Below, piece after piece: positions 37,986 to 64,000 of a stretch of DNA of 64,000 nt. The notes beneath the pieces were generated by a model. That model saw nothing but the letters and a program-made list of their open reading frames with translations, had not been told where the DNA came from and did not search any database. Every line of letters starts with the position of its first letter. Position 1 is the stretch's first letter. The translations under genes were made by a program, and so were the position numbers. Source of the DNA: Gammaproteobacteria bacterium (GTDB taxonomy: Bacteria > Pseudomonadota > Gammaproteobacteria > CAJXQU01); assembly GCA_965238175.1 (NCBI GenBank), contig CBDEGZ010000003.1, forward strand, positions 2,368,001 to 2,432,000, in the 5' to 3' direction.

Positions 37986-38411
37986 TCACTTCCGTTGTGA
38001 CAACTCATCTATTTCGAATTGCTCCTTTTGATCCATCGTCTTTTGTTCATCACTTGCATAACGCTCTTTTACATTACTAAGTGCACGGGTTTTATTATGC
38101 AGTTGTAACCATTGATCTTGATGTCTTTCATTGGTTGCCTTTCTCTCGAGAATTTGTAGTTCCAGTTGTTGGATGGCGACATCAAGTTGTTGAATAAAAA
38201 TTCTGATGCCTTTTAATTCTGATGCGGTTCTTATATGAGAAGGGCCTGTGCCTAATTGATCAGAATATTCCTGGCGGCAACGTTGCATGTCTGTAAGTTG
38301 AGTCTCACTTTGTTCAAGTAATTGCTGACTTTGGGCAAATTGTTTTGCCGCAGCATCTTTCTGGTTTTTGCTTAAACCGACTATTGTACTCATACGGTTC
38401 GAGCGCCTCAT
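37986..38411 (-). CDS. fliJ: Flagellar export protein FliJ
   Basis: Coiled coil, FIQQLD.AI.Q, EQ..IDE; overlaps the fliI stop. Confidence 0.88.
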   Translation of the reverse strand: MRRSNRMSTIVGLSKNQKDAAAKQFAQSQQLLEQSETQLTDMQRCRQEYSDQLGTGPSHIRTASELKGIRIFIQQLDVAIQQLELQILERKATNERHQDQWLQLHNKTRALSNVKERYASDEQKTMDQKEQFEIDELSQRK

Positions 38412-41478: not shown

Positions 41479-41505
41479 ATGTACTTTCCTTAGTAAGCAT
41501 TACCC

Positions 41506-43224
41506 TCACTCACCAACCCAATTTTTAACCACTTGAGCTGCCATTTTTGGTTCGTCTTTTACATAATCTCGCACTGATGCGAGACTGGTTTCATAACTGG
41601 ATCCCTTTCCTAGCTCAGATATAGGAACACTAACTGCGGTATCTGCCACAGTATTATCTTGCACTTGTCGCATTGGCTGCCCGTTTTCATCAAGTAATGG
41701 CTTTCCATCTGGACCTAGCATTACGTAATTCTTATCATAATCAAGTGCGGCAGCGGCAGCGGCTTCCGATTTAGTCATTATGCTTTTGATTGTTGGACGC
41801 AAAACACCAAATAATAAATAGAGCACGAACAAACCTCCTAATACCTGTTTGCCTACATCCCAAACCCAGGCTTGCTCCCAGATCGCCTGTTCTGGTAGTG
41901 GTTCAACTGCTGGCGCAACAAAGAAGTTCTTTGCAATGACGCTCACGGTATCACCCCGGGCGACATTAAAACCTACCGCATCCTTAATCAATTTTGTAAA
42001 ACCTTCGATCTCTTCGGCAGAGTATGGCGTTTGTGTTGCTTTACCAGCCTCGTCAATTAGAGAAGGATTGTTCAATACAACTGCGACAGATAATTTTTCA
42101 AGTGTACCAACCGCTTTTTGTGTATGACTGATGGTTTTATCAAGTTCATAATTTCGTGTTTCTTTCTTACGTAACTGTTGTTGTTCTGAGGCGGGGGCTT
42201 CAGCACCTTCACCTTCAACAGTCGCAACTTCTGGCACCTCTCCAGTACCTGGGGGTTGATTGGTTAATGCACCGGGAACACCCGCAGCAAGACCGCCACC
42301 GGTTCGTTGTTCTTCTGTCATCTGCTCACTACGAATGGCAGGTAGATCAGGATTGAACGTTTCGCTGGTTTGTTCTGTAGAAGTGAAATCAAGATCAGCT
42401 GTTACTTGCGCCCTAACATCATCAAGTCCAACAATAGGTTGTAAAATTGTTTCAATCCGTTTGACATAGGTATCTTCAACACGTCTTGTGTAATCAAACC
42501 GTTCTGCACTGACTGCCATTTCGCTTGCACCAGCACGGGTCAATAATCGTCCAGATTGATCAACAACCGTGACACCAGAAGCATTTAGGCTAGGAACACT
42601 GGCAGAAACCATGTGCGCAATAGCCGCTATTTGGCCATCTTCTAATCGTCTACCCGCATAGAGATCAAGAACCACTGACGCGCTGGTTGCCTTTTTGTCT
42701 CGTGTGAAAACTGAATCTTTAGGAATGGCTAAATGAACTCTCGCACCTCGTACGTTAGTGATATTAGAAATTGATCGGGATAGTTCAGCTTCTAAGGCAC
42801 GTTGATAACGTGCTCTTTCAATAAATTGGCTAGTTCCAAAACCCTGTTCATCTTGCAGCATTTCAAAACCCATACTGCTACTTTTGGGTAATCCTTGCGC
42901 TGCCAGTTTCAATCGAGTTTCATGCAACTTGGCTGTTGGGATCAAAATACCTCCAGATGCACTATCAACTTTGTACTCGATTCCGGAGCCCTGTAATGCA
43001 TCTATTGCTGCACTCGCGTCCCGATCAGATAAGTTGCCAAACAAAAGACTATAGTTTGGCGTTTGAGACCACATCACAACGGCAACACCAAGTGCGACAC
43101 TCGCTGCAATACCGATCAATAATCCTGCTTGTCTTAAAACATGACCCGTTGTATCTGGTGGTGGTTGCACCAACATCGGCTGTGCAAAATTTTGATTTGG
43201 ATTTGCTACTTCATTCTCTGCCAT
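41506..43224 (-). CDS. fliF: Flagellar MS-ring protein FliF
   Basis: FGTSQF.E..RYQRALE.EL, ARVHLAIP, GVPGALTNQPP, RNYELD. Confidence 0.98.
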   Translation of the reverse strand: MAENEVANPNQNFAQPMLVQPPPDTTGHVLRQAGLLIGIAASVALGVAVVMWSQTPNYSLLFGNLSDRDASAAIDALQGSGIEYKVDSASGGILIPTAKLHETRLKLAAQGLPKSSSMGFEMLQDEQGFGTSQFIERARYQRALEAELSRSISNITNVRGARVHLAIPKDSVFTRDKKATSASVVLDLYAGRRLEDGQIAAIAHMVSASVPSLNASGVTVVDQSGRLLTRAGASEMAVSAERFDYTRRVEDTYVKRIETILQPIVGLDDVRAQVTADLDFTSTEQTSETFNPDLPAIRSEQMTEEQRTGGGLAAGVPGALTNQPPGTGEVPEVATVEGEGAEAPASEQQQLRKKETRNYELDKTISHTQKAVGTLEKLSVAVVLNNPSLIDEAGKATQTPYSAEEIEGFTKLIKDAVGFNVARGDTVSVIAKNFFVAPAVEPLPEQAIWEQAWVWDVGKQVLGGLFVLYLLFGVLRPTIKSIMTKSEAAAAAALDYDKNYVMLGPDGKPLLDENGQPMRQVQDNTVADTAVSVPISELGKGSSYETSLASVRDYVKDEPKMAAQVVKNWVGE

Positions 43225-43289
43225 GTGATTTCTCTTACTTCCTTAATTTACTAGCCCTTTAGTATTAAATAACTAATAGTATTGGATAA

Positions 43290-43604
43290 CTAAATAGGCA
43301 TGTTCATAATTTGTTGATAGGCTTCGACCATCTTATTTCTTACTTGAACAGTCGCTTGAAATTCAATACCCGCTTTTTGTAATGACACCATTACATCAGC
43401 AATTTCCACATCTTTGCCAGACTCATAAGCTTTAACTTTTTCACCTGCAGCTTTTTGTGTTTCATTCACATGATCAACGGCTGATTTCATTACCGTTGTA
43501 AAATTATTCGATGGCGCTTGAACTGCATTTGGCTGAATACCTTCTGCACGTGACTGCATCGCTCGCATTTGCGCGAGTACCGATTGGATTGCCATATCTG
43601 CCAT
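43290..43604 (-). CDS. fliE: Flagellar hook-basal body protein FliE
   Basis: VMVSLQKA...FQ..VQVRNK..EAYQ.IMNMP. Confidence 0.96.
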   Translation of the reverse strand: MADMAIQSVLAQMRAMQSRAEGIQPNAVQAPSNNFTTVMKSAVDHVNETQKAAGEKVKAYESGKDVEIADVMVSLQKAGIEFQATVQVRNKMVEAYQQIMNMPI

Positions 43605-43615
43605 ATTTTCTCTCC

Positions 43616-44989
43616 CTAAGCCGGTACGGCTATTCCTTGATCACGCATTTTTGCTAATTTATAACGCAATGTTCTTGGGCTAATCCCAAGCTTTTCTGAA
43701 GCGTCTTTTCGACTACCTCCACACTCTTCCAACGCCTCAATAATTAATTGATATTCTTGATCTCTAAGATTGTTACCCAAATCACTAGAATTGGTATTAA
43801 TTTCATTTTGACTATGATTATTTTGAGGTTCATGTTCTCTTGTATCATCTAAAGGATGAACATCGCCCAAGTCTTCAAAGATCAAGTCTTCGGCATTTAT
43901 TTCGTCACCCGTCTGTAAAATCAAAGCACGTTGCATAACGTTATCCAATTCACGTACATTCCCAGGCCAGGCGTGTGTCATTAGCTTTTCTGCCGCATAC
44001 TCCGTCACTTCAGGAATATAACCACCTTGGGATTTTGCGGTTCTGTATAAGAGAAATTCGGCTAAGGGAACGATGTCTTCAGGACGATTTCTGAGCGCTG
44101 GCATTTTGATCGGAAAAACATTAAGTCGATAAAAAAGATCTTCTCTAAAACATCCTTCTTTGACTTCCGTTTTCAGATCTCTATTTGTCGTTGCAACAAT
44201 GCGCACATCTAGATCAATAACTTTATTTCCGCCGAGCCTTTCAACTTGTTTTTCTTGCAAGACTCTTAAAATTTTTGCTTGCAACCCCAAATCCATTTCT
44301 GATATTTCATCCAGTAATAAAGTACTTCCTTGCGCTTGTTCAAATTTACCCGCACTCGCTTTATACGCGCCAGTAAATGCGCCTTTTTCGTAGCCAAATA
44401 AAACCGCTTCAAGCATATTGTCAGGAATCGCCGCACAATTGATCGCAACCGGATCTTTGTTTGATCGTTCCGAACGATTATGGATATAACGAAACAGTAC
44501 TTCTTTACCTGTACCACTTTCACCACTTACCATCACCGTTGCATCACTCATTGCAACTCGCCGCGCGACATCCAATACGTCTTTCATACGTTGATCTTCA
44601 GCAATGACACCATCTTCCATCGCTAAAACCAAGGGCATAATCTGAGCGACTTTGCTAACTAATACCGTCGATTCAAAAGGTTTAACCAGATAATCAACCG
44701 CACCATCCTGAATAGCTTTAATTGCATTTTGGATTGTGCCGTATGCTGTCATTAACAGGACTGGCAAATCAGTTCGACGGGTTTTAATATTTTTCAATAA
44801 AGTGTGGCCATCCATTTGATCCATTTGTACATCGCTGATCACCAGATCAACGTGTTCATCATCAATGATCAATAATGCTTTCTGCCCATTCTCAGCTGAA
44901 AGAGTGTCATAACCACCTAATTGCAAGGTGTCACAGATTGCTTCTCTGAGATTGAGATCATCTTCAACAACAAGTACAACTGGCTTCAT
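43616..44989 (-). CDS. fleR: Sigma54-dependent response regulator FleR/FlrC
   Basis: Receiver domain, GESGTGKE, GAFTGA, Fis HTH LGISPRTLRYKL; position before fliE. Confidence 0.92.
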   Translation of the reverse strand: MKPVVLVVEDDLNLREAICDTLQLGGYDTLSAENGQKALLIIDDEHVDLVISDVQMDQMDGHTLLKNIKTRRTDLPVLLMTAYGTIQNAIKAIQDGAVDYLVKPFESTVLVSKVAQIMPLVLAMEDGVIAEDQRMKDVLDVARRVAMSDATVMVSGESGTGKEVLFRYIHNRSERSNKDPVAINCAAIPDNMLEAVLFGYEKGAFTGAYKASAGKFEQAQGSTLLLDEISEMDLGLQAKILRVLQEKQVERLGGNKVIDLDVRIVATTNRDLKTEVKEGCFREDLFYRLNVFPIKMPALRNRPEDIVPLAEFLLYRTAKSQGGYIPEVTEYAAEKLMTHAWPGNVRELDNVMQRALILQTGDEINAEDLIFEDLGDVHPLDDTREHEPQNNHSQNEINTNSSDLGNNLRDQEYQLIIEALEECGGSRKDASEKLGISPRTLRYKLAKMRDQGIAVPA

Positions 44990-46146
44990 GCTTTCTCCTC
45001 AGTAATCGGCAAGGTAATATCAAATATAGTTCCGTGCGGTGCTACATCTCGAACGACAATTCCGCCACCATGTGATCGAACAACGGCCTGAGCTATAGAG
45101 AGTCCTAAACCCGTTCCGTTAGCTCGCGTAGTCACAAAAGGTTCAAACAATGTTTCCCGGATATTTTCTGGAATACCCGTTCCATTATCTGCAAGCGAAA
45201 TTCGTACCATTTTTTCGTTATTTATCATCACATTTTTTGTAGTAATTATTATTGAACCACCGGATCCAGTTGCTTGTACTGCATTGTCGATCAGATTTTC
45301 TAGAATACTGTTCATCGCTTCTGGATTGATCTGTATTAAACAATCTGAAATATCAGGATCAATAATCAGATTAAGATCATTGGATTGAATATTTACCTCA
45401 ACCTGGAGTGTTAAATTTTCGATCAATTTCAGTAATGAAAATTGTTGTAGTTCAAAATTTTCACCACGCGCAAATAGCAACATATCTTCAATCAGTTTTT
45501 CCAGATAATTAAGACGCTGCAATGATTTTTGGGTGAATTTTTCTCTATCCTTTAGACCAAGATTAGAATGTGAAAGGTTTGATAGATACAGGATTGCAGA
45601 GGCTAAAGGTGTACGGATCTGATGCGCTAGCGCTGCGGCCATCTCACCTTTTGCAGAAAGACGTTTTGCACGATTTAGCTGTTCTTGTAATTGATGGGTT
45701 TCAGTCACATCTTTGATCAATAAAATTTGACCAGGCTCATCAATCATAGGTTGGGTTGAAATATTCACAACCCGGCCATTGACTAAGGAAATATCGTGGC
45801 CATCATCCCAACGCGGAGAAAAAGCGCGTTCGACGACATCACGCCAGAGTTCATTTTCCAAAGGTTGATCAAACAGATCATTCGCCGCAGGATTACATTG
45901 AACAACACGACCCTCCCCATTGAGCATCACAACCGCGCCAGGCAATGCTTGAAAAAGATTGCTCATGCGCCGAATTAAGATTTCGGTTTCAAGTGGACTA
46001 GTTTGGTTGTTGTTAGATCTTTTCTGGGACGATTGATCAGTTGTTGATCGATCTATTGTTGTAACAACGTTTAGGTTGTCTTTGGAGGAATTCTGATCGG
46101 CAGGTGTTTCTATATCGATCACATCTATTTGCTCACTCTGGTACAT
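44986..46146 (-). CDS. fleS: PAS sensor histidine kinase FleS/FlrB
   Basis: PAS with PR.DDGH.ISL..GR, H-box LAHQIRTPL, G boxes. Confidence 0.92.
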   Translation of the reverse strand: MYQSEQIDVIDIETPADQNSSKDNLNVVTTIDRSTTDQSSQKRSNNNQTSPLETEILIRRMSNLFQALPGAVVMLNGEGRVVQCNPAANDLFDQPLENELWRDVVERAFSPRWDDGHDISLVNGRVVNISTQPMIDEPGQILLIKDVTETHQLQEQLNRAKRLSAKGEMAAALAHQIRTPLASAILYLSNLSHSNLGLKDREKFTQKSLQRLNYLEKLIEDMLLFARGENFELQQFSLLKLIENLTLQVEVNIQSNDLNLIIDPDISDCLIQINPEAMNSILENLIDNAVQATGSGGSIIITTKNVMINNEKMVRISLADNGTGIPENIRETLFEPFVTTRANGTGLGLSIAQAVVRSHGGGIVVRDVAPHGTIFDITLPITEEKA

Positions 46147-46158
46147 ACACCAGAATGA

Positions 46159-46173
46159 GCAAGTAGTATGCCA
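46159..46173 (-). promoter_or_regulatory. Sigma54 -24/-12 promoter of fleSR
   Basis: TGGCATACTACTTGC, GG-N10-GC. Confidence 0.85.
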
Positions 46174-46235
46174 AAAATAATAGTGTTTAGCTTACAATGG
46201 CTTAATGATTTTTCTGTTTTCTTTAAGCCTAATTA

Positions 46236-46251
46236 TGTCAAGCGGATGACA
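46236..46251. promoter_or_regulatory. Candidate FleQ-binding enhancer
   Basis: Palindrome TGTCA-AGCGGA-TGACA (GTCA-N6-TGAC) about 63 bp upstream of the fleS -24 box, overlapping the fleQ stop. Confidence 0.55.
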
Positions 46252-47662
46252 CTTCGTCCCGGCGTTGCATATTGTATTTCCGCATCTTCTCAACCAACGT
46301 TGTACGCCCCAATTGCAAACGTTTTGCCGCATGCGCAACTACCCAGTTTGACTCATCCAACGCCTGTTTTATCATGCTAAATTCAAGGTTGGTCAAATGC
46401 TCTTTGAGATCAATCCCACCATGTGGCAGCCTTGGCATAATGCCATTGTCTTCCATCGCGTCTTCGTCGACTTCATCCAAATCACTGTCCTCAAGCACTT
46501 CTTGAGATTGGTATTTTTCAGGAAGATCTGTCACACCAACAGTTCCATTTGGATATAAGATTGATAGTCGTTCTATTAGATTTGCCAACTCACGAACATT
46601 TCCAGGCCAGCCATACTTACTTAGGGACTGAATAGTCGTCGGTGACAAGCTGATACTACCATTACCTTCATGCTCAAGACGTTCTGTTAAATCATTGATC
46701 AACAAAGGAAGATCTTCAATTCTATCTCTGAGTGGCGGCGTTTCGATCGGGAATACATTTAAACGATAAAACAGATCTTCTCTGAAATTACCTTCTTCAA
46801 TCGCTTCTTCTAAATTCACATGAGTGGCTGCGATAATACGGACATCCGCCTTGATCGCCTTATTACTACCTACTCTTTCAAAAATACGTTCTTGCAAAAC
46901 ACGCAATAACTTGACTTGCATTGATTGGCTCATATCCCCGATTTCATCGAGAAATAATGTTCCACCTTCTGCAATTTCAAATCGCCCCTGACGAGTCGTT
47001 ATCGCACCTGTAAATGCTCCTTTTTCATGACCGAATAATTCACTCTCTAAAAGATCGGGGGGAATAGCACCACAATTGATAGGAACGAAAGGTTTATTTT
47101 TTCGTGGTGAATGATAATGAACATGTCTGGCAATTACTTCTTTACCCGAACCAGATTCTCCAGTGATCAAAACATTAGCATCTGAAGTTGCCACCATTTC
47201 AATCATTCGACGGACTCGTTGTATCCCTTTACTACTCCCGACTAAGGAACGGAATAATTCTAACGATCTCGGAGCGCCATCTTCATGTCTATTCTCACGA
47301 TATGTATCCACTTTTTCCAGAACTACCGAAAGTTGTTTTTGTCTCAACGGTACGTTTGCTTTAGCAAGGATCCCCGTTTCCAATTCAAAGTTCGCTTTGT
47401 TTTTATCATTATCAATAAGCAATACAACCGGAAGATATGGATCAGCTTTTTTGATCTGTCTGAAAACGTCCATTAATATTTTCGTTTCAGTACAACCACC
47501 TAGCAGTAAAATTTGTGCACTATCTTTCCCACCAAGATGTTGTTCCCAACTTTCATGATCGACTGCATAAACGGGTGAATATTCCAAAAATTCTAAAATT
47601 GATTTGATGTGTTCTCGTTGTTCTTTATCGTCTTCTACGATAAGTACACTACCATTGGCCAT
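46238..47662 (-). CDS. fleQ: Flagellar master regulator FleQ/FlrA
   Basis: Degenerate REC, LFRSLVG.S, GESGSGKE, GAFTGA, RTTLVEKMRKY. Confidence 0.96.
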   Translation of the reverse strand: MANGSVLIVEDDKEQREHIKSILEFLEYSPVYAVDHESWEQHLGGKDSAQILLLGGCTETKILMDVFRQIKKADPYLPVVLLIDNDKNKANFELETGILAKANVPLRQKQLSVVLEKVDTYRENRHEDGAPRSLELFRSLVGSSKGIQRVRRMIEMVATSDANVLITGESGSGKEVIARHVHYHSPRKNKPFVPINCGAIPPDLLESELFGHEKGAFTGAITTRQGRFEIAEGGTLFLDEIGDMSQSMQVKLLRVLQERIFERVGSNKAIKADVRIIAATHVNLEEAIEEGNFREDLFYRLNVFPIETPPLRDRIEDLPLLINDLTERLEHEGNGSISLSPTTIQSLSKYGWPGNVRELANLIERLSILYPNGTVGVTDLPEKYQSQEVLEDSDLDEVDEDAMEDNGIMPRLPHGGIDLKEHLTNLEFSMIKQALDESNWVVAHAAKRLQLGRTTLVEKMRKYNMQRRDEVSSA

Positions 47663-47866: not shown

Positions 47867-48430
47867 TTAACTTTGTGTTCTATTGCGTGCGATCTGTTTA
47901 CGATGATAGAGAAAGATCATACGGGTTAAATCATCCATTACGTTATCACCTGTCAGTAAAATTTGTGCCTCAATCTCAGGTGTTAATGTACTGTCTAAAT
48001 TACTGTTCGTGACAACAACTGGAAGCTCAAGTGCTGTCGGATATTTTTGACTCAGATATATTGATACGATACAAAACTCTTCCTTGTTTAAGGAAATATC
48101 TGGTTGCCAACAAAGATGTTGCGCACTCATTTTCAAGCTTTTTATTTCGGGCCGATTCTGTTGATCAAGAAGCACTCTTGCGAGTAATTCAGTAACAAAA
48201 TCAATCTTTTGTTCTAATCTGTGTAATTCAGCTGAGTTACTGTTTTTTAAATCAGGATTTATTTGTTCATGCCCTAACTGTTCTAGGGTAATGATCGCAT
48301 TTAATACCTCTTGAGCAGAGTTATTAAGATCATGAATTTTATCGTACGAGAAAGACGATTCTATACGTTTTTCACTGATCGAGAACCTATCTTCGAAAGC
48401 GAGGACATTTGAGAAATTATTCTCACTCAT
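47867..48430 (-). CDS. Atypical (tPilZ-like) PilZ-domain protein
   Basis: EL.RLEQKIDF..ELL, SA..LCW, L.LP..V, L.R.IF..HRKQIAR. Confidence 0.6.
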   Translation of the reverse strand: MSENNFSNVLAFEDRFSISEKRIESSFSYDKIHDLNNSAQEVLNAIITLEQLGHEQINPDLKNSNSAELHRLEQKIDFVTELLARVLLDQQNRPEIKSLKMSAQHLCWQPDISLNKEEFCIVSIYLSQKYPTALELPVVVTNSNLDSTLTPEIEAQILLTGDNVMDDLTRMIFLYHRKQIARNRTQS

Positions 48431-48598: not shown

Positions 48599-49003
48599 TT
48601 AAGCTGTCTCTAAATCAGGCTGAGCATTTGCTGGAACTGTACTCAGTCCTGCAGCAATATTCTGATTTATATTAATTAATACAGATATTTTTTCACGTTC
48701 AGGCTTTACCATAAGATCAAATGTTCTTTTATCAACAAACAAACTTATTGAAAGGATATCTTCACGCAATTTTTTAGGTAATTGGTTTTCATCGGAAGCA
48801 AGATCGACTTGAAAGACACTCCATAATTTCTGATTATATTTTAGCGCCTCATCCAGTTTTTGCTCCCTATCCGTTGCATCCCATCTATCTTGTACTGCCT
48901 GCAACATGGCTGCAGCCCGGTTAAGAATAGAAGCTTCCAACTGGCGTGGTGACATCGTAGCTTTATTTACTTTGTGATACGCATTAACTGCTGATTTCTG
49001 CAT
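48599..49003 (-). CDS. flaF: Flagellar biosynthesis regulator FlaF
   Basis: AY......SPRQLEA, AL.YNQKLWS.FQ.DL....NQLP..LR..I.SISLFV, LININ.NIAAGL. Confidence 0.93.
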   Translation of the reverse strand: MQKSAVNAYHKVNKATMSPRQLEASILNRAAAMLQAVQDRWDATDREQKLDEALKYNQKLWSVFQVDLASDENQLPKKLREDILSISLFVDKRTFDLMVKPEREKISVLININQNIAAGLSTVPANAQPDLETA

Positions 49004-49385
49004 GTCCTATAGTCTCCGTTTCCTTGTTTATTAATTTTCTGGCAAGTTTCAATGCCTTGTAATAATTATCTACTAATATTAAATCACTGATCTCGCTAAT
49101 CAGTGGCTCAAAACTTGGTGCGGCCTCTATAACATCTTTTACCAGCGACCAATAACTCTTATGGTTTTTACTCAAATTCTCGAAGCCTTCCATATACATA
49201 AGTTGTATCGATAAATAAATGCATCTGCACGGCGACGTTGCAGTCTCTTCGGTTAAAATATCTTTTTCACGAAGAATGGTCACCGAATTTAATACCGTAA
49301 ATTCAGCAGAACTGTCACCATTCATCACTACAGCCCCACCAATAAAGAGTTTTTCTCTTGGTTTCAACGCTATTTTTAACGGCAT
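48984..49385 (-). CDS. flbT: Flagellin translational regulator FlbT
   Basis: MPLKI.LKP.EK.FIGGAV..NGD, ILREKDIL.EE.ATSP...IY..IQLMY, YYKALK.ARKLI. Confidence 0.94.
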   Translation of the reverse strand: MPLKIALKPREKLFIGGAVVMNGDSSAEFTVLNSVTILREKDILTEETATSPCRCIYLSIQLMYMEGFENLSKNHKSYWSLVKDVIEAAPSFEPLISEISDLILVDNYYKALKLARKLINKETETIGHAEISS

Positions 49386-50180
49386 TTATACTAATGACTC
49401 CAAAACGTTATTACTCTCTGATCCAACAAAACTTTCAACAGGCACTGAGGATAAAATCTGTCTTATCTTTTCACTTGTCTGTGCCACTTGTTGATCACTT
49501 TCAAGTATCTTTCTTCCGATACTTTTATCCTCTAATACAATTTTATTTGACACTTGATCAACAGTCTCTTTCAGCTCTTGTTGTCGACTGTCCAATAATT
49601 TCTGACCTACTGAAGTCAGATCACGACCGATCTGTATCACTTCCACATCGGGTGTATTGGAATTGATAGAAGCAATCTTCAGGCCAATTTTATCTTGTTG
49701 ACCGGCATCCTTATTTTCAGAGGTTGAATCATTTACTCCTGGGATAAGTTCTTTGTAATCCTTCACTAAAGTCAGCTTATCGACTTGATTTTTAAGTGAT
49801 TTTATTGAATTTATGAATTCCACTCGCTCCGAACTTTGATTTCTGAAAGGCGGATATTGCTTTTCATACTGTTGGATTCCTGCACGTTTTTCATTAATTT
49901 GATTACCGACAGCGGCTAAAAACTTGTCAGCGTCTCGGAAAGTAGTTGCCACTTCATTGAATTTTTCATTACGGATTTGTTGAGTGATAAATCGATCATC
50001 TCCAGATGACAATTTAACATCGTCTTGCAAGATTGTTGATGGTGCTCTCGATACTTGATTTAATTCACTAACTTTTAAAGCTTTATTTTTTCCAACCCCC
50101 TCTAACTGAGGGAGTGACGGAAGATTAACTTTTGCTGCGACGGAAGAAACCGCCACCGATCCTTCACTTAATTGATCCAT
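49386..50180 (-). CDS. Hypothetical protein with flagellin-D1-like helices, translationally coupled to flbT
   Basis: Strong RBS AAGGAGGAG; TAA abuts the flbT ATG; helical similarity to flagellin; K.YPPF motif. Confidence 0.75.
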   Translation of the reverse strand: MDQLSEGSVAVSSVAAKVNLPSLPQLEGVGKNKALKVSELNQVSRAPSTILQDDVKLSSGDDRFITQQIRNEKFNEVATTFRDADKFLAAVGNQINEKRAGIQQYEKQYPPFRNQSSERVEFINSIKSLKNQVDKLTLVKDYKELIPGVNDSTSENKDAGQQDKIGLKIASINSNTPDVEVIQIGRDLTSVGQKLLDSRQQELKETVDQVSNKIVLEDKSIGRKILESDQQVAQTSEKIRQILSSVPVESFVGSESNNVLESLV

Positions 50181-50208
50181 AGTGTTTCTCCTCCTTGAGA
50201 ACGAACAA

Positions 50209-50232
50209 GGGCCGATACCTGAGTATCAGCCC
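50209..50232 (-). terminator. Hairpin downstream of flagellin 1 (terminator or attenuator)
   Basis: GGGCUGAUAC-UCAG-GUAUCGGCCC followed by a weak U tract UUGUUCGUU. Confidence 0.6.
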
Positions 50233-50302
50233 CCATCCCTCACTATTTAGATTACTAAAACCCGATCTAAAATCGGTAGTTAATCGTCATAAAAGTTACT
50301 AC

Positions 50303-51145
50303 TTAGAACAATCTTAATACCGACTGTGCTGATTGATTAGCCAGACTCAATGAAATAATACTTAACTGCTGACGAGTTTGCAGCGCCAATAGATTGGCAC
50401 CTTCCTCGTTGGTGTCGGCCAATGTCAAATCATCCGCACCTGATCTTAGCGTATTAATTGTGTTTTGAGTAAACTCTTGACGCGCATTAACAATACCCAA
50501 ATTACCGGACAAAGATGTGCTCTGTGACTGTAATGTCAGTTTCGCTGCGTCTAACTGGGCTATAGCAGTATCAATATTTGTTGCAGTTTGGAGATCCGTT
50601 CCAGTTCCAACGCTTGTATCAGCAGCATTTAAACTTAGACCGGTAGACGATGCATCAAAACCCTGAATAACAGTATTACTTGAACCATCTTCGTTAAAAT
50701 TAACCGTCAAACTGTCTGACCCTAACAAATTAGTACCCTGGTATCCAGAATCATCTACAATTTGATTAATCTGTGCAACGATCTCATTAAACTGACTGGC
50801 AAGTTGAGCATCATCAGCCGTTTGGGCAGCAGTTGTGCCCGCAGTACCTGCCGCTGTTGCAAGTACACCTTGAGCTTGATCAATCAAAGAACGGATCGCC
50901 GTAATACCATTATCGGCAGCTTCCACAACTCTGATAGCTTGTGTCAAACCATCGCTCCTTGCTGCAAGTGCGTCTGCACGGTTAGTATTTGCACTTGCGG
51001 CAAAAAATGACTGTGCATTATCCAAAGCACTGTTTACCCGTTTACCCGTAGCTAAACGTTCTTGTGTCCGTGCTGTTAATTTATCTGTTTGTTGAAGTGT
51101 TAATAAATTTGAGCGTAAGCCCGCGCTGAGAGATATCTCACTCAT
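50303..51145 (-). CDS. Flagellin 1, short alphaproteobacterial-type (280 aa)
   Basis: MSEISLSAGLRSNLL.LQQT...TQERLATGKRVNSALDN; LADTNEEGANLLALQTRQQL...SLSLANQS.QSVLRLF; ATG at 51145 follows an AGGAG RBS. Confidence 0.95.
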   Translation of the reverse strand: MSEISLSAGLRSNLLTLQQTDKLTARTQERLATGKRVNSALDNAQSFFAASANTNRADALAARSDGLTQAIRVVEAADNGITAIRSLIDQAQGVLATAAGTAGTTAAQTADDAQLASQFNEIVAQINQIVDDSGYQGTNLLGSDSLTVNFNEDGSSNTVIQGFDASSTGLSLNAADTSVGTGTDLQTATNIDTAIAQLDAAKLTLQSQSTSLSGNLGIVNARQEFTQNTINTLRSGADDLTLADTNEEGANLLALQTRQQLSIISLSLANQSAQSVLRLF

Positions 51146-51173
51146 AGTCCTTTCTCCTTTTCTAGGTTTCAAA

Positions 51174-51196
51174 CATCAGAAAATTCTTAGCTGATG
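51174..51196 (-). promoter_or_regulatory. 5'UTR hairpin with AAGAAUU loop (flagellin 1)
   Basis: CAUCAG-CUAAGAAUUUU-CUGAUG at -51..-29 from the ATG. Confidence 0.65.
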
Positions 51197-51216
51197 ATTT
51201 GTACTACTCCTTTAAC

Positions 51217-51235
51217 ACACCTCATCCTGAGGTGT
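51217..51235 (-). promoter_or_regulatory. Candidate CsrA/RsmA site in the flagellin 1 leader
   Basis: ACACCUC-AGGAU-GAGGUGU, GGA in a pentaloop. Confidence 0.55.
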
Positions 51236-51267
51236 CCCATGCTTAAAAATTAAACATGTCAGATACT

Positions 51268-51294
51268 GTATCGTAGTCAGGAAAAATAACTTTA
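51268..51294 (-). promoter_or_regulatory. Sigma28 (FliA)-like promoter of flagellin 1
   Basis: TAAA-N15-TACGATAC vs consensus TAAA-N15-GCCGATAA. Confidence 0.7.
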
Positions 51295-51404
51295 GGATTC
51301 TATGTAAGGTAAAGCCAGCTATTAGTGAGAACCAGGTCATGTATTAATACCAACTTGTCGTTGGTAGCACTTAACCTTCATTTCCAAATATCACGGGTAT
51401 AAAC

Positions 51405-51437
51405 AAAAAATGGGACGGTTAATCGTCCCATTTTTTT
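51405..51437. terminator. Intrinsic terminator after flagellin 2 (bidirectional form)
   Basis: A6-TGGGACG-GTTAAT-CGTCCCA-T7. Confidence 0.85.
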
Positions 51438-51463
51438 CCATTTTGGATCTGGTCTATTTAATA

Positions 51464-52306
51464 TTAGAACAAGCTCAATACAGACTGTGCTGATTGATTA
51501 GCCAGACTCAATGAGATAATACTTAACTGCTGACGAGTTTGCAGCGCCAATAGATTAGTACCCTCTTCGTTGGTATCGGCCAATGTCAAATCATCCGCAC
51601 CTGATCTTAGCGTATTAATTGTGCTTTGAGTAAACTCTTGACGCGCATTGACAATACCCAAATTACCGGACAAAGATGTGCTCTGTGCCTGTAATGTCAA
51701 TCTCGCCGCGTCTAACTGGGCTGTAGCAGTATCAATATTTGCTGCAACTTGGAGATCCGTTCCTGTTCCAACGCTTGTATCAGCAGCATTTAGACTTAGA
51801 CCGGTTGATGAAGCATCAAAACCTAGAATAACGGTATTACTTGAACCATTTTCATTAAAGTTAACCGTCAAATTGTCTGACTCTAACAAATTGGTACCCC
51901 GATATCCGGAATCTAGTACAATGTTATTAATCTGTGCAACGATCTCATTAAACTGAATCGCAAGTTGAGCATCGTCCGCCGTTTGTGTAGCAGTCGTGCC
52001 CGTAGTACCTGCCGCTGTTGCAAGTACACCTTGAGCCTGATCAAGTAAAGAACGGATCGCAGTAATACCGTTATTGGCCTCTTCCACAACTCTGATAGCT
52101 TGCGTCAAACCATCACTCCTTGCTGCAAGTGCGTCTGCACGGTTAGTATTTGCACTTGCGGCAAAAAATGACTGTGCATTATCCAAAGCACTGTTTACCC
52201 GTTTACCCGTAGCTAAACGCTCTTGTGTCCGTGCTGTTAGTCTATCTGTTTGTTGAAGTGTTAATAAGTTTGAGCGTAAGCCCGCGCTGAGAGATATGTC
52301 ACTCAT
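51464..52306 (-). CDS. Flagellin 2, short alphaproteobacterial-type (280 aa)
   Basis: About 23 of 280 residues differ from flagellin 1 (manual count); same terminal motifs. Confidence 0.95.
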   Translation of the reverse strand: MSDISLSAGLRSNLLTLQQTDRLTARTQERLATGKRVNSALDNAQSFFAASANTNRADALAARSDGLTQAIRVVEEANNGITAIRSLLDQAQGVLATAAGTTGTTATQTADDAQLAIQFNEIVAQINNIVLDSGYRGTNLLESDNLTVNFNENGSSNTVILGFDASSTGLSLNAADTSVGTGTDLQVAANIDTATAQLDAARLTLQAQSTSLSGNLGIVNARQEFTQSTINTLRSGADDLTLADTNEEGTNLLALQTRQQLSIISLSLANQSAQSVLSLF

Positions 52307-52334
52307 AATCCTTTCTCCTGTTCTAGGTTGAATC

Positions 52335-52357
52335 TACCGGACAATTCTTTTCCGATA
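52335..52357 (-). promoter_or_regulatory. 5'UTR hairpin with AAGAAUU loop (flagellin 2)
   Basis: UAUCGG-AAAAGAAUUGU-CCGGUA at -51..-29 from the ATG. Confidence 0.65.
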
Positions 52358-52407
52358 TTATTTAAAAATAAACATCCCGCATCCTTTCTTGGACTGCGTT
52401 GACCACT

Positions 52408-52434
52408 GTATCGGTTATCTCCTAATAACCTTTA
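52408..52434 (-). promoter_or_regulatory. Sigma28 (FliA)-like promoter of flagellin 2
   Basis: TAAA-N15-ACCGATAC. Confidence 0.78.
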
Positions 52435-52492
52435 CATTTATTTTTAATACACATAACAAAACATCCTGATTAAGATTTATAACCTCAAAACA

Positions 52493-52507
52493 TGGCACAC
52501 ATCATGC
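52493..52507 (+). promoter_or_regulatory. Sigma54 promoter of the glycosyltransferase operon
   Basis: TGGCACACATCATGC, GG-N10-GC, 58 bp before the ATG at 52566. Confidence 0.72.
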
Positions 52508-52565
52508 GTAATTTAACCGCTATATGTCATGATATTAAAAGAGTGAACAGTACCAACAGAACACG

Positions 52566-55500
52566 ATGAACTCCGAAATTAAACCATACACAAACAATCT
52601 ATCTCTAGAAGAAGTCATTCACCAACATACTTTAGGAAACCTGGAATCAGCCAGGATTGGTTACCAGTTGTTTATTGATCGTAACCAACAAGGTGCACTA
52701 CCTTATGTGAATCTTGCAGATATTTATATTCTTGAAAACAAAATAGAAGAAGCTTTAACGCTTACTAGAAAAGCGATCGAGATTGATCCGGAATTTCTTG
52801 ATGCCTATATAAAATTAGGCTATATCCTTGAATTATTAAAACAATCACAGATAAAACAACCCTATACTGAAGAAATTATTGATTGTTACAAAAAAACGAT
52901 TGAGCTTGATCCTGAAAATGCATCACCGCACTTTTTTTTAGGAAACATTTATAAAGGTCAAGGTAACATTGAAAAAGCAGAAAAACATTTTCAACAAGCA
53001 ACCAATATTAACCCTGACTTTTCTCACGCTCATTTAAACATAGCTATTCTATTCGTAAACCAACGACGATACGATTTAGCGGTCGACAGCTTCAGGAAAG
53101 CGTTTACTACAGATAAATTACTAAAAAGTGCCGTTTGTGCTTATTGGCATATACGCATGAGAATGTGTGATTGGTCTCAGTATTCAGAAATGTTGGGATC
53201 TATCAATAACGCAGTTGAAGAGGTCCAAAGTTTAAATGAAATACCTGATATTCTAAATACCATAACTCCTTTTACATTTTTAAATTTGTATGACAATCCA
53301 GAACTTCAGTTAAGCACATCCAAGCTCTATATACGTTCTGTTCAAAAAGCTCTTATAAAGGAAAACGAAGTAATAGAAGTTGAACACTCAATAAAACAAA
53401 ACATTATAACTAAGCTTGCATTTCTGTCAGCAGACTACCATAACCACGCAACCGCTTATCTAATAGCGGAACTTTTTGAATTATTTGATAAACAAAAGTT
53501 TGAGATACATGTTATTTCTTTTGATCCTGAGGGGCATGACTCGGCAATGCGTGAACGCATTGAAACAGCCAGCGATCATTTTCACGATGTTTGTTTAAAA
53601 AATGATAAAGAAATTGCACAGCTTATAGTTGATCAAAATATAGGTATCGCAATTGACCTAAAAGGATTTACCCAAAATAGTCGTCCTGCAATTTTAGCCT
53701 ATAAACCAGCACCTATTCAGGTCAACTATCTAGGTTACCCAAGTTCGATGGGAACAGATTTTATAGATTACATGATTGCAGATCCTTATGTGATCCCAGA
53801 ACAAGAACAAGTTTTTTATAGTGAAAAAATCGCGTACCTTCCAGATAGTTACCAGGTAAATGATCGACTTCGCCCAATACAAGCTAAAATTCCTTCACGT
53901 CTTGAATGCGGTTTGCCAGAAGAAGGATTTGTTTTTTGTAGCTTCAATAATAATTACAAAATCACTCCGGAAATATTTGATATTTGGATGGATCTTCTTA
54001 GAGAAATTCCCAATAGCATTTTGTGGTTACTAGAAGATAATGAATGGGCAAAAACTAATCTGCAGGCGGAGGCTAAATCAAGAGGGATTGATTCATCTCG
54101 TATAATATTTTCTAGTTTTCTCAGGTTAGATTATCACTTGGCTCGCGCTCAAAATGCAGACTTATTTTTAGATACTTTTCCCTGTAATGCACACACTACC
54201 GCCAGTGATGCACTATGGATAGGATTACCATTGATCACAAATAGTGGAAGAAGTTTTTCTTCGCGCGTCGCTGGGAGTTTGTTAACTGCTGCGGGCTTAC
54301 CCGAATTGATCACCACCAATCTTAATGATTACAAAACATTAGCATTTGAACTTGCCAACAATCCTGAAAAACTTAGCGAGATCAAATCCAAATTAATAAA
54401 CCAGCGTGAAACTTGTAAATTATTTGATACCGAACATTATAAAGATAACCTGCAAACAGCTTTTGAAGAAATGATCCGCTTGCGACAGAATCATTCAAGT
54501 AACGAGACATTTCATGTCTCTGAACTAGAAAATAAACCTGTACGAAAAATTACTCGATCAAATATAGTTTGTACACCCTACAATCTTGATGACACTTCAT
54601 CTTCACAAGAAATCACACTTCATGATGTGATCGAAAAACACCATAATGGTGATCTGGTTTATGCAAAAAAAGCCTATCAGGCATTTATTGATGCAAACCT
54701 GAATAATGTATTACCTTATTCCAATCTGGCCAGTATTTATTTTCAAGAGGGCAACGTAGAACAAGCCATTACTTTGTTGGAACAAGGATTGAAAATTAAT
54801 CCTATTTTTATTGATGGCTATATGAAGTTAGGTTCTTTACTAGAAATTAAAAAACAAGAAAACTACTTTGAAAGAGCATCCATCTGTTATAAGAAAGTAA
54901 TAGAGCTGGAACCTGACCATGCATTAGCACATTTCTCTCTTGGCAATATTTTAGCTGATAAAAACCAAAATGAAGGTGCAATATCGCATTTACAAAAAAC
55001 GATTGAGATCAACCCGAAATTTTCTCTCGCCAGCTTTAATTTAGGCATTATATATCTAAGTAAACAAGATCTGCTTAAAGCTGAAAAATATTTTATACAG
55101 GCATATCAGGTTGATCCATCAATGAAAAATGCGCTGGGAAAATGGTTTCATACACGCATGCATATGTGTGACTGGTCTGATTATAAGGAGATGTGTTCAT
55201 CCCTACAATTGGATAAAAATGGTTTAGGTAAAAGCATCTCAAATCAATCGTCAAATATTAGTAAAGTGTTTTCGCCTTTCTCATTGATTAATGTTCTTGA
55301 TGATCCACACATGCAATTAGAAATATCAAAAGAATATCTGGATATGAAAATAACAGATGTAGATACTTCAATAATTCTATATAAGGAACAAGAGTCTAAA
55401 AATAGAGGAGAGAATGATCTAATTAAAATTGCTTTTCTTTCATCTGATTTTCATGATCATGCAACCTCTTATTTGATGGTCGAAACTTTTGAATTATTTT

Positions 55501-58500
55501 CCAAAAAACAGTTTGAAACTCACGTCATCTCATTTGGAAAAGAAGATCACTCAAAAGTAAGAAAACGAATCAAATCATCATGCGATTATTTTTATGATGT
55601 CCAACAGAAAACAGATCTTGAAATAGCGAATCTAATAGTTGAAAAAAATATTGATATTGCCATTGATCTTAAAGGCTACACACAAGGTTGTCGCCCAGCA
55701 ATTTTAGCTTATCGTCCAGCACCTCTTCAGATAAATTATCTTGGTTACCCTGGCAGTATGAACGCTGATTTTATTGATTACATTATTGCAGATCCATTTA
55801 TTATTCCTAAGGAATTGCAATCAAACTACTCTGAAAAAATCATGTACATGCCTGATAGCTACCAGGTAAATGATCGTCGTCGTCCAGTACATGAAAAAAG
55901 ACCTTCACGTGAATCTTGTGGATTACCAACGGATGGTTTCGTATTTGCGTGCTTTAACAATAGCTACAAGATCACACCCGATGTTTTTCAGGTCTGGCTT
56001 GAGTTATTAAATGAAACACCTGGCAGCGTTCTATGGCTAATGGAAAGCAATAAGTGGGCAAAACATAATCTACTAAAACAAATAGAATCTCATGGCATCA
56101 ATCCAGCTAGATTGATTTTTGCTGAACAATTACCACTTGATTTTCATTTAGCCAGAATCCAAAACGCGGATCTTTTTCTTGATACTTTCCCATGTAATGC
56201 ACATACCACTGCTAGTGATGCACTTTGGGTAGGACTTCCACTAATAACATGCATTGGCAAAGGATTTGCATCACGAGTTGCAGGTAGTTTATTAAAGGCC
56301 GTAGATATTGAAAAATTAATCACTAGTGATCTTACTAGCTATAAAGCGGTAGCACTCGATCTTGCTCACCATCCTGAGAAACTTTATCAAATAAGATCAA
56401 AATTAATAAACAATAGATACACCTGTGCTTTATTCGATACAAAGCGGTTTCAAAATAATTTTCAGACAGGGCTCACACATATGGTTGATATAAATAAAAG
56501 AAGATCACAAACTGAAACATTTTATGTTTCTGATCTCTCTGACAAGCTAATCGATAACATGTTGACTGATCTTGCTGCTGAGAGTCCTCAAGTAGAAGAA
56601 AATAATACACCACCTATAAATATCGCACTGATTTTTCCCGAAAATTATCCACATTCTGATATTTTCAATGAAGTCGCAGAAACCCTTCTTTATGCATTTG
56701 ATAAAGTTGGTTTTAATACCTCTATCACAAAAAACACCTTCTTTAACGACGGAATAAATATCATTATTGGTGCAAATTTACTAAAAGAATCAGATATACA
56801 TCTGATTCCTGAGACCAGTATTATCTATAATTTTGAACAAATTACTGACAGCTCAGATTGGATGACTCCTACGCTTTATGAACTATTTCAACGTTTTCAA
56901 GTTTGGGATTATAGTCAAAAAAATATCGCCACACTTAAAGAAAAAGGATTTACCCGAGTTGGCCACATGCCTGTTGGATATGCTCCAAGTCTGACTCGTA
57001 TACCCAAAGCCACAGTACAAGATATTGATGTACTCTTTTATGGTTCAACAAATGAAAGACGATTAACCATTTTAAATCAATTAAAAACGGCGGGATTACG
57101 AATAGAAACACTTTATGGTGTTTATGGCTCAGAACGTGATGAATATATTTCACGCTCAAAATTAATTGTAAACATCCACTATTACGATAGTAATATATTT
57201 GAACAAGTACGTATCTCATATCTGTTGGCAAATAAGAAAGCCGTTGTCAGTGAATGCAGTGAAACAACCGATATTGATGATGATCTTAAAGATGCCGTTG
57301 CATTCGTGCCTTACGATAAAATCGTTGAAAAATGTATCGAACTAATCAATTCAGATCAAACTCGACTCGTTTTAGAAGAAAAAGGATTTGAACATTTTAA
57401 ATCCAGAGATCCTATTGAATATCTGCAAAATGCACTCCATGAGTTCAATCAAGAACCGTCCGAGCACGAACTTCTTAAAGAGGATCACTCCGAAATTACT
57501 GAGGATCATTCCGAAATTATTGAGGATCACTCCGAAATTACTGAGGATCATTCCGAAATTATTGAAGAACATTTGGAAAGAACAAACTTACCTTTTATTT
57601 CGATTCTAATCCCTACATACAATCATTCAAAATACATAGAAGCAGCTATCTTAAGTGCTCTGAAGCAGGAATACCCAAACTTTGAAGTAATCGTAGTAGA
57701 TGATGGATCTACAGATAACACTAAAAGTATTGTCGAAAGTATTGATGATGCAAGATTAAGATTGATTGTCAAAGAACATTCAGGAACACCTGCTACAAGA
57801 AATCGTTGTATCAGTGAAGCACAGGGAGATTATTTTCTGTGGCTGGACAGTGTTGATGAATTGATACCGAATGTTTTAATCAACTATGCAAATATACTTC
57901 AGGAAAATCCTGAAATGGATATTGTCTATGGTGATCTTGAAATACTTAATGAATCTGATGGGGAGAGTCAAATTCATTCTTATCCTGATCATCAAAACGA
58001 TCAACACCTTCTGCCCCACTTACTCAATAAATGTAACATGCCTAATAGTGGTTCATTAGTAAAAAGATCCATCCACAATCGCTATGGTGGATACGATGAT
58101 AATTTTCAGAATGCACATAATTATGATTTTTGGTGTCGTGTAGCGAAGCTTTCAAATTTCAAACACAGTGGCATGACTGCATATCGTTCCCAAATAGATG
58201 ACCCAAGCACGTCATCCGTGAAAACAAAACATGACTATTCATTCGAAGCTGCCATTGTCAAAAAGACATGTAACCGTTTAGGTATTCGTGAATTATCTCC
58301 AGAGTTAGATTGGTCAAATGAAAATCAGGCTTATACCAAAGCATGGCTGAAAATTGGAACAATTCTACAACGTCTCCAAGACTACGAAAATGCACTCGTC
58401 GCTTTTGAACAAGCTCTAAAAACCACACACAATAATGAAGAGCTTCGACTCGAAGTGAAAAATGCGGTTCAGAATCTAATTACCGTCGCTAAGAATACTG

Positions 58501-59945: not shown

Positions 59946-59947
59946 TA

Positions 59948-63999: not shown

Positions 64000-64000
64000 A

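Follow-up and report, generated by a model that had tools for sequence, protein, structure and literature searches.

The Pseudomonas-type late flagellar region carries its filament genes in the order flgL-fliC-flaG-fliD-fliS-fliT-fleQ, and the FlaF and FlbT families were first studied in Caulobacter and rhizobia. To our knowledge, accounts of flagellar gene transfer usually deal with entire systems. Here we describe a 64-kb stretch of DNA (C3:2368001-2432000, hereafter the window) from the 3.35-Mb genome (3 contigs, 97.72% complete) of a member of an uncultured marine gammaproteobacterial genus, in which the filament genes between flgL and fleQ of a gamma-type flagellar cluster appear to have been replaced by a cassette of flagellin, orfX, flbT and flaF genes.

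FlaF of Caulobacter crescentus is a secretion chaperone that binds flagellin, whose secretion depends on it, and the regulatory flagellin FljJ is the specific partner of FlbT, with FljJ secretion lifting the repression (PMC7591256). The Caulobacter system (FlaF, FlbT and FljJ, with FlmG) shares with the present locus the FlaF and FlbT families, flagellins with the same conserved ends, a TPR-glycosyltransferase beside the flagellins and the lack of a Pfam match for FliD or FliS. By analogy, a similar logic may be expected here, with FlaF as chaperone and FlbT acting on the flagellin mRNA leader. The module described here stands, however, under a sigma-54/FleQ and sigma-28 hierarchy rather than under CtrA/FlbD, has the additional gene orfX before flbT, and has its nearest relatives outside the Alphaproteobacteria. 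The fla1-type cluster of Rhodobacterales, fliC-flaF-flbT-CP1, likewise has no FliD; it includes an accessory gene of unknown function (about 260 amino acids) with flaF and flbT, and a CP1 mutant secretes flagellin and forms no filament (PMC12363192). The order flagellin-flaF-flbT-DUF1217 that we found on plasmid pA of Cereibacter sphaeroides fits this arrangement, and its DUF1217 protein is taken to be CP1, judged from position. Unlike the present cassette, the Rhodobacterales cluster has flaF before flbT, and its accessory DUF1217 protein bears no likeness to orfX.

Closest in organization is a cassette of Geobacterales/Desulfuromonadales and Nitrospirota (e.g., Geotalea sp. SG265, L033, and Geomonas paludis, L055), which carries these four genes in identical order and encodes flagellins of about 271 amino acids that align end to end with those of the genus, together with the same sigma-28-type promoter and leader hairpin and adjoining giant TPR-glycosyltransferases. 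It differs from the genus cassette in sequence (45-59% identity), the genus is not nested within it, and the other flagellar genes of these organisms are not gamma-type (FlgL 22-31%). A 2026 preprint (PMC13277936) remarks that FlaF and FlbT occur together and, in a table, gives FlaF as an analog of FliS and FlaY as an analog of FliD; its supplements might tabulate the distribution. Our literature search found no article joining FlbT, FlaF and Geobacter and, among the articles listed for FlbT, FlaF and Gammaproteobacteria and judged by title and abstract, none with the FlaF/FlbT module of a gammaproteobacterium as its subject.

The exchange would concern a single functional layer within a native cluster, comprising the subunit of the filament together with its chaperone, translational regulator and cis elements. 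The foreign flagellin must therefore polymerise on the native FlgL and be exported by the native gate with a chaperone other than FliS and without a FliD cap. Such a natural chimeric flagellum would be a natural experiment on the interchangeable interfaces of flagella, and it shows that FlaF and FlbT are not peculiar to Alphaproteobacteria. The gene orfX, a covarying flagellin leader hairpin common to several phyla and the near-perfect exclusion between FlaF and FliS in a single class appear to be undescribed.

Gene order of the hybrid locus

Pfam searches of the 20 large open reading frames (ORFs) in window positions 37986-64000 gave the minus-strand order flgJ (3' part)-flgK-flgL-fla2-fla1-orfX-flbT-flaF-tPilZ-fleQ-fleS-fleR-fliEFGHIJ, in which orfX is without a family. 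Coordinates below refer to the window and its minus strand unless stated otherwise. Every gene from flgJ to fliJ named in a preliminary description of this DNA was found at its place, and the flagellin motifs quoted there are present in the sequence.

Two flagellin genes, fla2 (51464..52306) and fla1 (50303..51145), encode 280 amino acids each and are 92% identical to each other. Both match Flagellin_N and Flagellin_C (PF00669, 41.4 and 45.3 bits, cut-off 26.6; PF00700, 26.1 and 24.8 bits, cut-off 23, for fla2 and fla1, respectively), and fla2 is classed as a flagellin of the FlaF-dependent type. The start of fla1 is most likely the ATG at 51145 and not the TTG at 51172, because the former gives a product of 280 amino acids like fla2 and the same ribosome-binding region. 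A terminator-like hairpin (51405..51436), with a 14-pair stem followed by a T run, separates the two genes. They are followed by orfX (orf264; 49386..50180, 264 amino acids), flbT (48984..49385) and flaF (48599..49003), which abut or overlap (flbT and flaF by 20 bases) as an operon would. FlaF matches PF07309 with 124.6 bits (cut-off 23.6) over profile positions 3-113 of 113 and NF009435 with 135.3 bits (cut-off 91), and would by homology be a flagellin secretion chaperone and FliS analog. FlbT, by homology a post-transcriptional flagellin regulator, matches PF07378 with 125.7 bits (cut-off 27) and the NCBIfam equivalog NF009432 with 122 bits, under its cut-off of 153.

The cassette is framed by flgL (60994..61899; TIGR02550, 211 bits), flgK (61931..63568; FlgK_D1, 230 bits) and the 3' part of flgJ (63598..64000; Glucosaminidase domain) on one side. 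The flgJ gene continues past the window end, and its full length gives a 351-amino-acid match to gamma FlgJ at C3:2431619-2432671. On the other side lie an atypical PilZ (tPilZ) gene (47867..48430; PF16823, 33.4 bits) and the gamma-type regulators and basal-body/export genes fleQ-fleS-fleR-fliE-fliF-fliG-fliH-fliI-fliJ (37986..47662). At the position of the tPilZ gene, two gamma relatives carry a small ORF that follows fliS; the tPilZ product is 44-78% identical within the genus and has no match in the gamma or outgroup loci compared.

Absence of FliD and FliS and state of the slot in relatives

As the preliminary description had noted, the 64-kb window holds no fliD, fliS, fliT or flaG. Pfam profile searches of the whole genome for FliD_N, FliD_C and FliS returned 0 matches each, and each of these families was matched in the Escherichia coli, Bacillus subtilis and Thermotoga controls. 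Flagellin_N matches only fla1, fla2 and flgL in the whole genome. There is no fliC-fliD-fliS elsewhere in the genome, and a canonical module at another site therefore does not account for the filament. Outside the window, flaG does occur, as an orphan gene at C3:1728815-1729240 (L188:7815-8240) beside an IS110-type transposase, so that the reported lack of flaG holds for the window and not for the genome. The orphan FlaG resembles FlaG of gamma loci weakly (30-43% over 53-70 amino acids) and is found in 7/7 genus genomes; it may be all that is left of the replaced module.

The remaining flagellar genes are complete as far as they were sought: all gene classes are present and none is broken by stops. 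FleQ with its N-terminal FleQ domain, FleS/FleR, FliA, FlgM, FlhF and FleN are all encoded, and the core genes are nearest to those of gamma genomes. FliA and FlgM are found outside the window, the former in fliLMNOPQR-flhB-flhA-flhF-fleN-fliA-cheYZAB-motAB-cheW at about 1.51-1.53 Mb and the latter in flgA-flgM-flgN at about 1.78 Mb, together with a YcgR-like gene. The genes flgD to flgI (2280047-2285537) share 46-66% identity with their counterparts in a gamma relative.

FlaF was found in all seven genus genomes, which were searched for FliD_C and FliS with 0/7 matches each, and in none of 34 genomes from other families offered as relatives. A class sample of 400 genomes (315 genera; G244 not scored) had FlaF above the cut-off only in 3 genus genomes, and two further matches (E 1.6e-4 and 7e-4) fell under it. 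The order flagellin(s)-orfX-flbT-flaF-pilZ-fleQ-fleS-fleR-fliE recurs in five genus loci, all from metagenome-assembled genomes (four labelled Gammaproteobacteria bacterium and one uncultured proteobacterium). No cassette gene is interrupted in the window or in these 5 loci, one of which has a partial flagellin at a contig end.

Outside the genus, the best matches of FleQ belong to the same class (60-66% identity); one of them, G299, is flagged as unpublished and was given no weight. The neighbourhoods of six genomes with close FleQ genes were fetched, four of which were annotated. Two of these (G317 and G157; FleQ 62-66%) have flgJ-flgK-flgL-fliC-flaG-fliD-fliS-small ORF-fleQ-fleS-fleR-fliE, and a third (G129) has fliS-ORF-fleQ-fleS; the fourth (G294) has sugar-modification genes before fleQ and no filament gene in the annotated stretch. 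The canonical module thus stands in exactly this slot, complete in 2/4 annotated relatives and with its end in a third. Compared with this canonical region, whose flanks flgJKL and fleQ-fleS-fleR-fliE are identical, the present locus has the filament module replaced, an FlgL shorter by about 110 amino acids, flaG elsewhere and a PilZ gene in place of the small ORF. Since gamma relatives have the canonical slot and no other genome of the class sample has FlaF, the comparison supports a swap of the filament module in place within a gamma-type FleQ cluster, as had been proposed.

Gamma-type machinery and probably foreign cassette proteins

The window proteins were compared by tblastn with six gamma loci that surround the closest gamma FleQ genes, an annotated FliC being present in two of the loci, and with loci of five cassette-bearing outgroup genomes. 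FlgK is 37-42% identical to the gamma loci vs 27-33% to the outgroup loci, and FlgL 35-37% vs 22-31%, in agreement with the gamma type ascribed to both in the preliminary description. FleQ, FleS, FleR and FliE reach 34-64% in the gamma loci, and their only matches in the outgroup loci are two weak partial ones of FleS/FleR (29-30%) in one locus. The cassette proteins behave in the opposite way. At E 1e-3, the flagellins have no match in the six gamma loci other than a weak partial one of fla2 in L117 (28% over 221 amino acids, 36 bits); in the five outgroup loci they match with 46-52% identity, over the whole length in four of five. Their full-length identity to 31 outgroup cassette flagellins is 44-54%. 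FlbT (45-57%) and FlaF (54-57%) match the outgroup loci and have no match in the gamma loci.

FlgL lacks an internal stretch of about 110 amino acids, with a length of 301 vs 412-413 in two annotated gamma relatives. A recombination joint inside flgL was considered and rejected, because the N-terminal, middle and C-terminal parts of FlgL are each closer to gamma FlgL. Through this shortening, the junction may have adapted to the small foreign flagellin.

Affinities of the cassette

A word-based protein search with FlaF gave 67-85% identity within the genus and about 52-61% for the next matches, with Geotalea, Geobacter, Thermodesulfovibrionales and Desulfobacteraceae among the names. A scan of species genomes confirmed 532 stretches, the best 80 of which comprised 5 from the genus and 75 others. 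By label, nearly all of these 75 belong to Geobacteraceae, Desulfuromonadales, 'Deltaproteobacteria', Thermodesulfovibrionales or Nitrospirota, with one Hydrogenophilales label (L062) and one label of the alphaproteobacterial family Dongiaceae (L077). The latter is probably wrong, since the genome (G411) was placed in the same class as Geotalea (G407) and Geomonas (G408). In most of the 75 loci, flagellin is separated from flbT and flaF by some 700 bases, and all three genes lie on the same (plus) strand. Within the best 80 of 532, Desulfuromonadia and Nitrospirota provide the nearest relatives of the flagellin, FlbT and FlaF, with 45-59% identity, and among the loci examined the order flagellin-orfX-flbT-flaF is shared only by the Desulfuromonadia/Geobacterales and Nitrospirota type. 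The label 'alpha-type', under which the cassette had been described, therefore had to be given up. The cassette-bearing outgroup genomes tested also lack matches to FliD_N (0/5) and FliS (0/5).

Broader surveys gave the same ranking. FlaF occurs in 55/151 Desulfuromonadia genomes with 41-57% identity, and in 59/300 other genomes of the phylum Pseudomonadota, all 59 outside the class, with 26-43%. A plasmid collection held 46 records with FlaF, at least 40 of them alphaproteobacterial by genus name, with listed identities of 29-38.5%. Where a flagellin was present in stretches of the other Pseudomonadota, it matches only at the two ends as separate pieces or with about 28-30% over the whole length, and orfX was not found in 39 of their stretches (29 short and 10 longer), where its profile matched only flagellins, and these weakly. 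The order flbT before flaF was rejected as a marker against Alphaproteobacteria; in the 18 other-Pseudomonadota loci with both genes it is flbT-flaF in 14, the reverse in 2 and on opposite strands in 2. Taken together, sequence similarity, the shared orfX and the collinear flagellin appear to tie the genus cassette to the Desulfuromonadia/Nitrospirota type.

Within the 151 Desulfuromonadia genomes, FlaF was found in 55 and FliS in 60 (59 above the cut-off), and both occur together only in G564 (matches at C1:58657-59016 and C13:23996-24334), which may have two flagellar systems, represent a transitional state or be a mixed bin. FlaF- and FliS-type modules thus coexist in one class and almost never in one genome, and this near exclusion suggests that the exchange described here is one case of a recurrent process. 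A genome with a Hydrogenophilales label (G410; L062 and L205) has the flagellin-orfX-flbT-flaF cassette but no match to FliD or FliS. Its GyrA shares 63% identity with that of the window organism, for which a gamma genome gives 70% and Geotalea 58%. It may be a second, independent hybrid within Pseudomonadota.

A fourth cassette gene, orfX

An ORF of 145-291 amino acids fills the gap between flagellin and flbT in 64/67 non-genus loci with an flbT match. A profile of the 6 genus orfX copies finds 62/64 of these gap ORFs (E <=4e-6), hhalign gives 99.3% probability between the genus and outgroup alignments, and orfX was also present in 27/30 further Desulfuromonadia loci. The word-based search with orfX returned just 4 proteins (39-100% identity), and the wider family was therefore gathered by position. 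Judged by this sequence conservation, orfX is a conserved cassette member and not a stray ORF.

The protein has no Pfam or NCBIfam family. Its AlphaFold model (AF2, 35-row alignment; mean pLDDT 66.3) has a disordered stretch of 57 residues at the start and long helices at 60-107, 117-138 and 178-245; a K..YPPF motif, in which K..PP is invariant, follows just after the first helix. Alignment with the cassette flagellins by hhalign gave 72.9% probability (E 3.1e-5), collinear over 198 columns, and the orfX profile matches true flagellins weakly (E 1.8e-4, 3.4e-4 and 8.6e-6). Flagellins and FlgL are frequent among VIA structural matches of the model at Z 7-8.5, a score that other helical proteins reach as well, and look-alikes in the Atlas include Flagellin_N clusters. 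Foldseek against the PDB gave no match at E 0.001. A predicted complex of flagellin and orfX scored 0.06 and 0.00 against a mark of 0.32, from which nothing follows. The model and profile matches suggest that orfX is possibly a very diverged flagellin-fold protein. An identity with DUF1217/CP1 was rejected, with an hhalign probability of 0.07% against the Cereibacter DUF1217 protein; the PF06748 (DUF1217) profile had 0 matches in the genome, in a search that was silent in every control genome too.

Promoters and a conserved leader hairpin

The pattern TAAAG-N16-CGATA, which we take to be a sigma-28-type promoter, occurs twice in the 64 kb (0.19 expected by chance), both times before a flagellin gene: at 52409..52434 for fla2 and at 51269..51294 for fla1, that is, 128 and 149 bases upstream of the respective start codons. 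By eye, similar CTAAAGTT...CGATA motifs precede the outgroup flagellins. A further element before orfX (50215-50245), TAAAT-N15-CTGATA, is 1 mismatch from the flagellin promoter pattern by eye and overlaps an imperfect inverted repeat, GCTGATAC..GTATCGGC; it may be a sigma-28-type promoter of an orfX-flbT-flaF operon.

The flagellin leaders share a hairpin, which lies at 52338..52354 for fla2 (AGAA-containing loop, followed by the ribosome-binding region CCTAGAA..GGAG) and at 51176..51194 for fla1 (AAGAAU loop). Across 37 leaders of genus and outgroups, the common structure has 6 pairs with AGAA in the loop, followed by CCYAGAAARGGRG at the ribosome-binding site. Compensatory changes were seen in 6/6 pairs, and 92.3% of cells were paired vs 65.5% after shuffling (0/500 shuffles as high), with both-side changes in 58 cells vs 17. 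When the partner was slid by 1-3 columns as a control, 22-40% were paired. An Rfam search of 48000-53000 gave no match up to E 1. Hairpins with a CAGAA loop and CCAGAAGG before the start codon were also noticed by eye in four other-Pseudomonadota leaders (L196, L197, L199 and L203), and the element may belong to all FlbT-controlled flagellins.

FlbT of Caulobacter is reported to bind the flagellin 5' leader (PMC4347634), and the hairpin is therefore a candidate FlbT operator. The leader controlled by CsrA-FliW in Bacillus and Campylobacter (PMC4894983) may be analogous in arrangement, a short motif occurring once in the loop of a hairpin and once more at the ribosome-binding site; its motif is GGA vs AGAA here, and the proteins are unrelated.

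Proposed origin and working of the filament module

We consider it likely that an ancestor of the genus replaced fliC-flaG-fliD-fliS and the small ORF between flgL and fleQ by a horizontally acquired, self-contained cassette of the type found in Desulfuromonadia and Nitrospirota. The cassette would have brought a sigma-28 promoter, the leader hairpin, a short flagellin that was later duplicated, orfX, flbT and flaF. In the host, the FleQ, FleS/FleR and FliA cascade would lead to a gamma-type basal body, hook and FlgK/FlgL junction, and FliA would transcribe fla2 and fla1 from the TAAAG-N16-CGATA promoters. FlbT would then act on the leader, with its AGAA-loop hairpin and AGAA..GGAG ribosome-binding region, and restrain flagellin synthesis, and FlaF, in place of FliS, would bind flagellin and deliver it to the gamma-type export gate; both roles are proposed by homology to Caulobacter. 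As in other FlaF/FlbT organisms, the filament would lack a FliD cap; it would extend from the gamma-type FlgL, and its flagellins would probably be glycosylated by the neighbouring TPR-glycosyltransferase. A deep branch and unremarkable guanine plus cytosine (G+C) content suggest that the swap is old and predates the genus. On the sequence evidence, the core of the preliminary description (a swap in place, with a FliD- and FliS-free filament on gamma-type machinery) appears to be right and its claim about the source wrong.

Several points weigh against this reconstruction or limit its reach. Phylogenetic trees were built from half of the named outgroup loci, all genus loci and all usable other-Pseudomonadota loci, with rows of odd length dropped. 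In the FlaF tree (67 rows, 128 columns, quick method, unrooted), the genus (support 91), Desulfuromonadia/Nitrospirota (83) and a 15-row other-Pseudomonadota clade (92) meet at one unresolved node, with eight further Pseudomonadota rows outside the three groups. The FlbT+FlaF tree (54 rows, 263 columns) recovers the genus (100) and Desulfuromonadia/Nitrospirota (95), and the branch separating the other Pseudomonadota has only 57. As the trees nest the genus neither in Desulfuromonadia/Nitrospirota nor in the other Pseudomonadota, its cassette appears to be a lineage of its own for which no donor can be named, and with another root it could become the sister group of the other Pseudomonadota. 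The direction proposed for the swap follows from parsimony. The cassette has a G+C of 0.36-0.41 like its surroundings and shows no compositional trace, and the giant glycosyltransferase is 24-29% identical to TPR-glycosyltransferase proteins on the gamma and outgroup sides alike. The silence of Pfam leaves room for a very diverged FliD or FliS analog, and all surveys were samples rather than censuses. Moreover, the flagellar genes are dispersed over at least 5 places in a genome rich in insertion sequences, a search for RNA runs listed none, and a working flagellum is predicted from the genes.

Part of this also bears on other explanations. The cassette could be ancestral, retained from early Pseudomonadota, with fliC-flaG-fliD-fliS put into the slot later by other Gammaproteobacteria; the unrooted trees permit a place for the genus beside other Pseudomonadota, the genus stands by itself within its family, the next relatives suggested sharing no more than its class, and the FlaG of all seven genus genomes also accompanies FlaF in Caulobacter. 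Such a retention is, however, difficult to reconcile with the class sample, where FlaF above the cut-off is confined to the genus, with the closer similarity of FlaF and FlbT to Desulfuromonadia/Nitrospirota than to other Pseudomonadota, or with orfX and the short collinear flagellin, which are common to the former and of which orfX was not found in the 39 stretches of the latter; the Rhodobacterales cassette carries an unrelated DUF1217 gene instead. We therefore regard it as improbable. An even smaller chance is given to an alphaproteobacterial source of the Caulobacter/rhizobia type. The FlaF and FlbT families and the flagellin end motifs are known from Alphaproteobacteria, and the FlaF tree does not separate one other-Pseudomonadota clade from the genus. 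The FlaF identities (26-43% in 59 genomes and 29-38.5% in 46 plasmid records vs 41-57% in Desulfuromonadia), the flagellins matching at their ends or with about 28-30%, the failure to find orfX and the flagellin-flaF-flbT-DUF1217 order of Cereibacter nevertheless point away from such a donor.

The gene dispersal and the many insertion sequences, one of them directly after fliJ (36795-37829), might also be read as signs of a decaying system in which the cassette is a functionless relic, and the failure to find a listed RNA run fits this too. Against such decay stand the open cassette genes in the window and 5 genus loci, the conserved promoters, leader and 92%-identical flagellin pair, and the presence of all flagellar gene classes sought, without stops; we hold a relic to be very unlikely.

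The replacement of the filament module by a Desulfuromonadia/Nitrospirota-type cassette may be part of a wider pattern, which we put forward tentatively and with considerable doubt. The cassette would be a portable, self-regulating module that can be plugged into any sigma-28 flagellar system, and FlaF-type and FliS/FliD-type modules would be mutually exclusive and repeatedly exchanged, even between phyla. orfX would be derived from a flagellin and exported through the finished hook-basal body, acting either as an FlbT partner that helps to repress flagellin translation, in the role of FljJ, or as the missing polymerisation or cap factor, and the AGAA hairpin with AGAA..GGAG would be the FlbT operator.

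Glycosyltransferase and other neighbouring genes

Between fla2 and flgL, two genes are encoded on the plus strand. The larger (52566..59945) specifies a giant protein of 2459 amino acids with TPR, GT41 (4 stretches), GT2 and methyltransferase parts by Pfam, and the other (59942..60748) a TylF-family O-methyltransferase (PF05711, E 4.9e-100). By analogy with FlmG of Caulobacter (PMC7591256), the giant protein is probably a flagellin glycosyltransferase. It stands beside the flagellins in 3 genus loci with 44-76% identity, and different parts of it align in different loci, such that its length and domain content may differ within the genus. TPR-glycosyltransferase proteins also flank the outgroup cassettes (24-28% identity), with giants of 2400-2800 amino acids in Geotalea and a Nitrospiraceae genome.

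Sigma-54 sites were searched with a consensus pattern, which gave 69 matches at <=2 mismatches vs about 50 expected. These include a -24/-12-like element, TGGCACACATCATGC (52493..52507, plus strand; 1 mismatch), 59 bases upstream of where the giant glycosyltransferase gene starts, and TGGCATACTACTTGC (46159-46173; 1 mismatch) before fleS. By eye, the reverse complement of the TGGCACACATCATGC-type element was seen in leaders of 3 other genus loci. The motifs suggest that the glycosyltransferase may be wired to the FleQ/FleR tier and the flagellins to sigma-28.

Transposase ORFs of 344 amino acids (HTH_29 and rve_3) were found at 11309-12343 and 36795-37829 of the window, the latter at the end of the flagellar cluster, and at C3:1731026-1732060 (L188:10026-11060). 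Their Pfam scores are identical, and they are therefore probably copies of one insertion sequence. IS110-type transposases adjoin flaG and lie near flgM. Elsewhere in the window, a single ORF of 680 amino acids (28562-30604) fuses EPSP synthase (aroA) and cytidylate kinase (cmk), and a HopJ-family protein is encoded at 8685-9029 on the plus strand. Near the fliL operon are a YscJ/FliF-family ORF of 294 amino acids (C3:1504434-1505318) and a collagen-repeat protein of 987 amino acids (C3:1508326-1511289); together with the HopJ-family protein, they may point to another type III system of non-flagellar kind, or to remnants of one.

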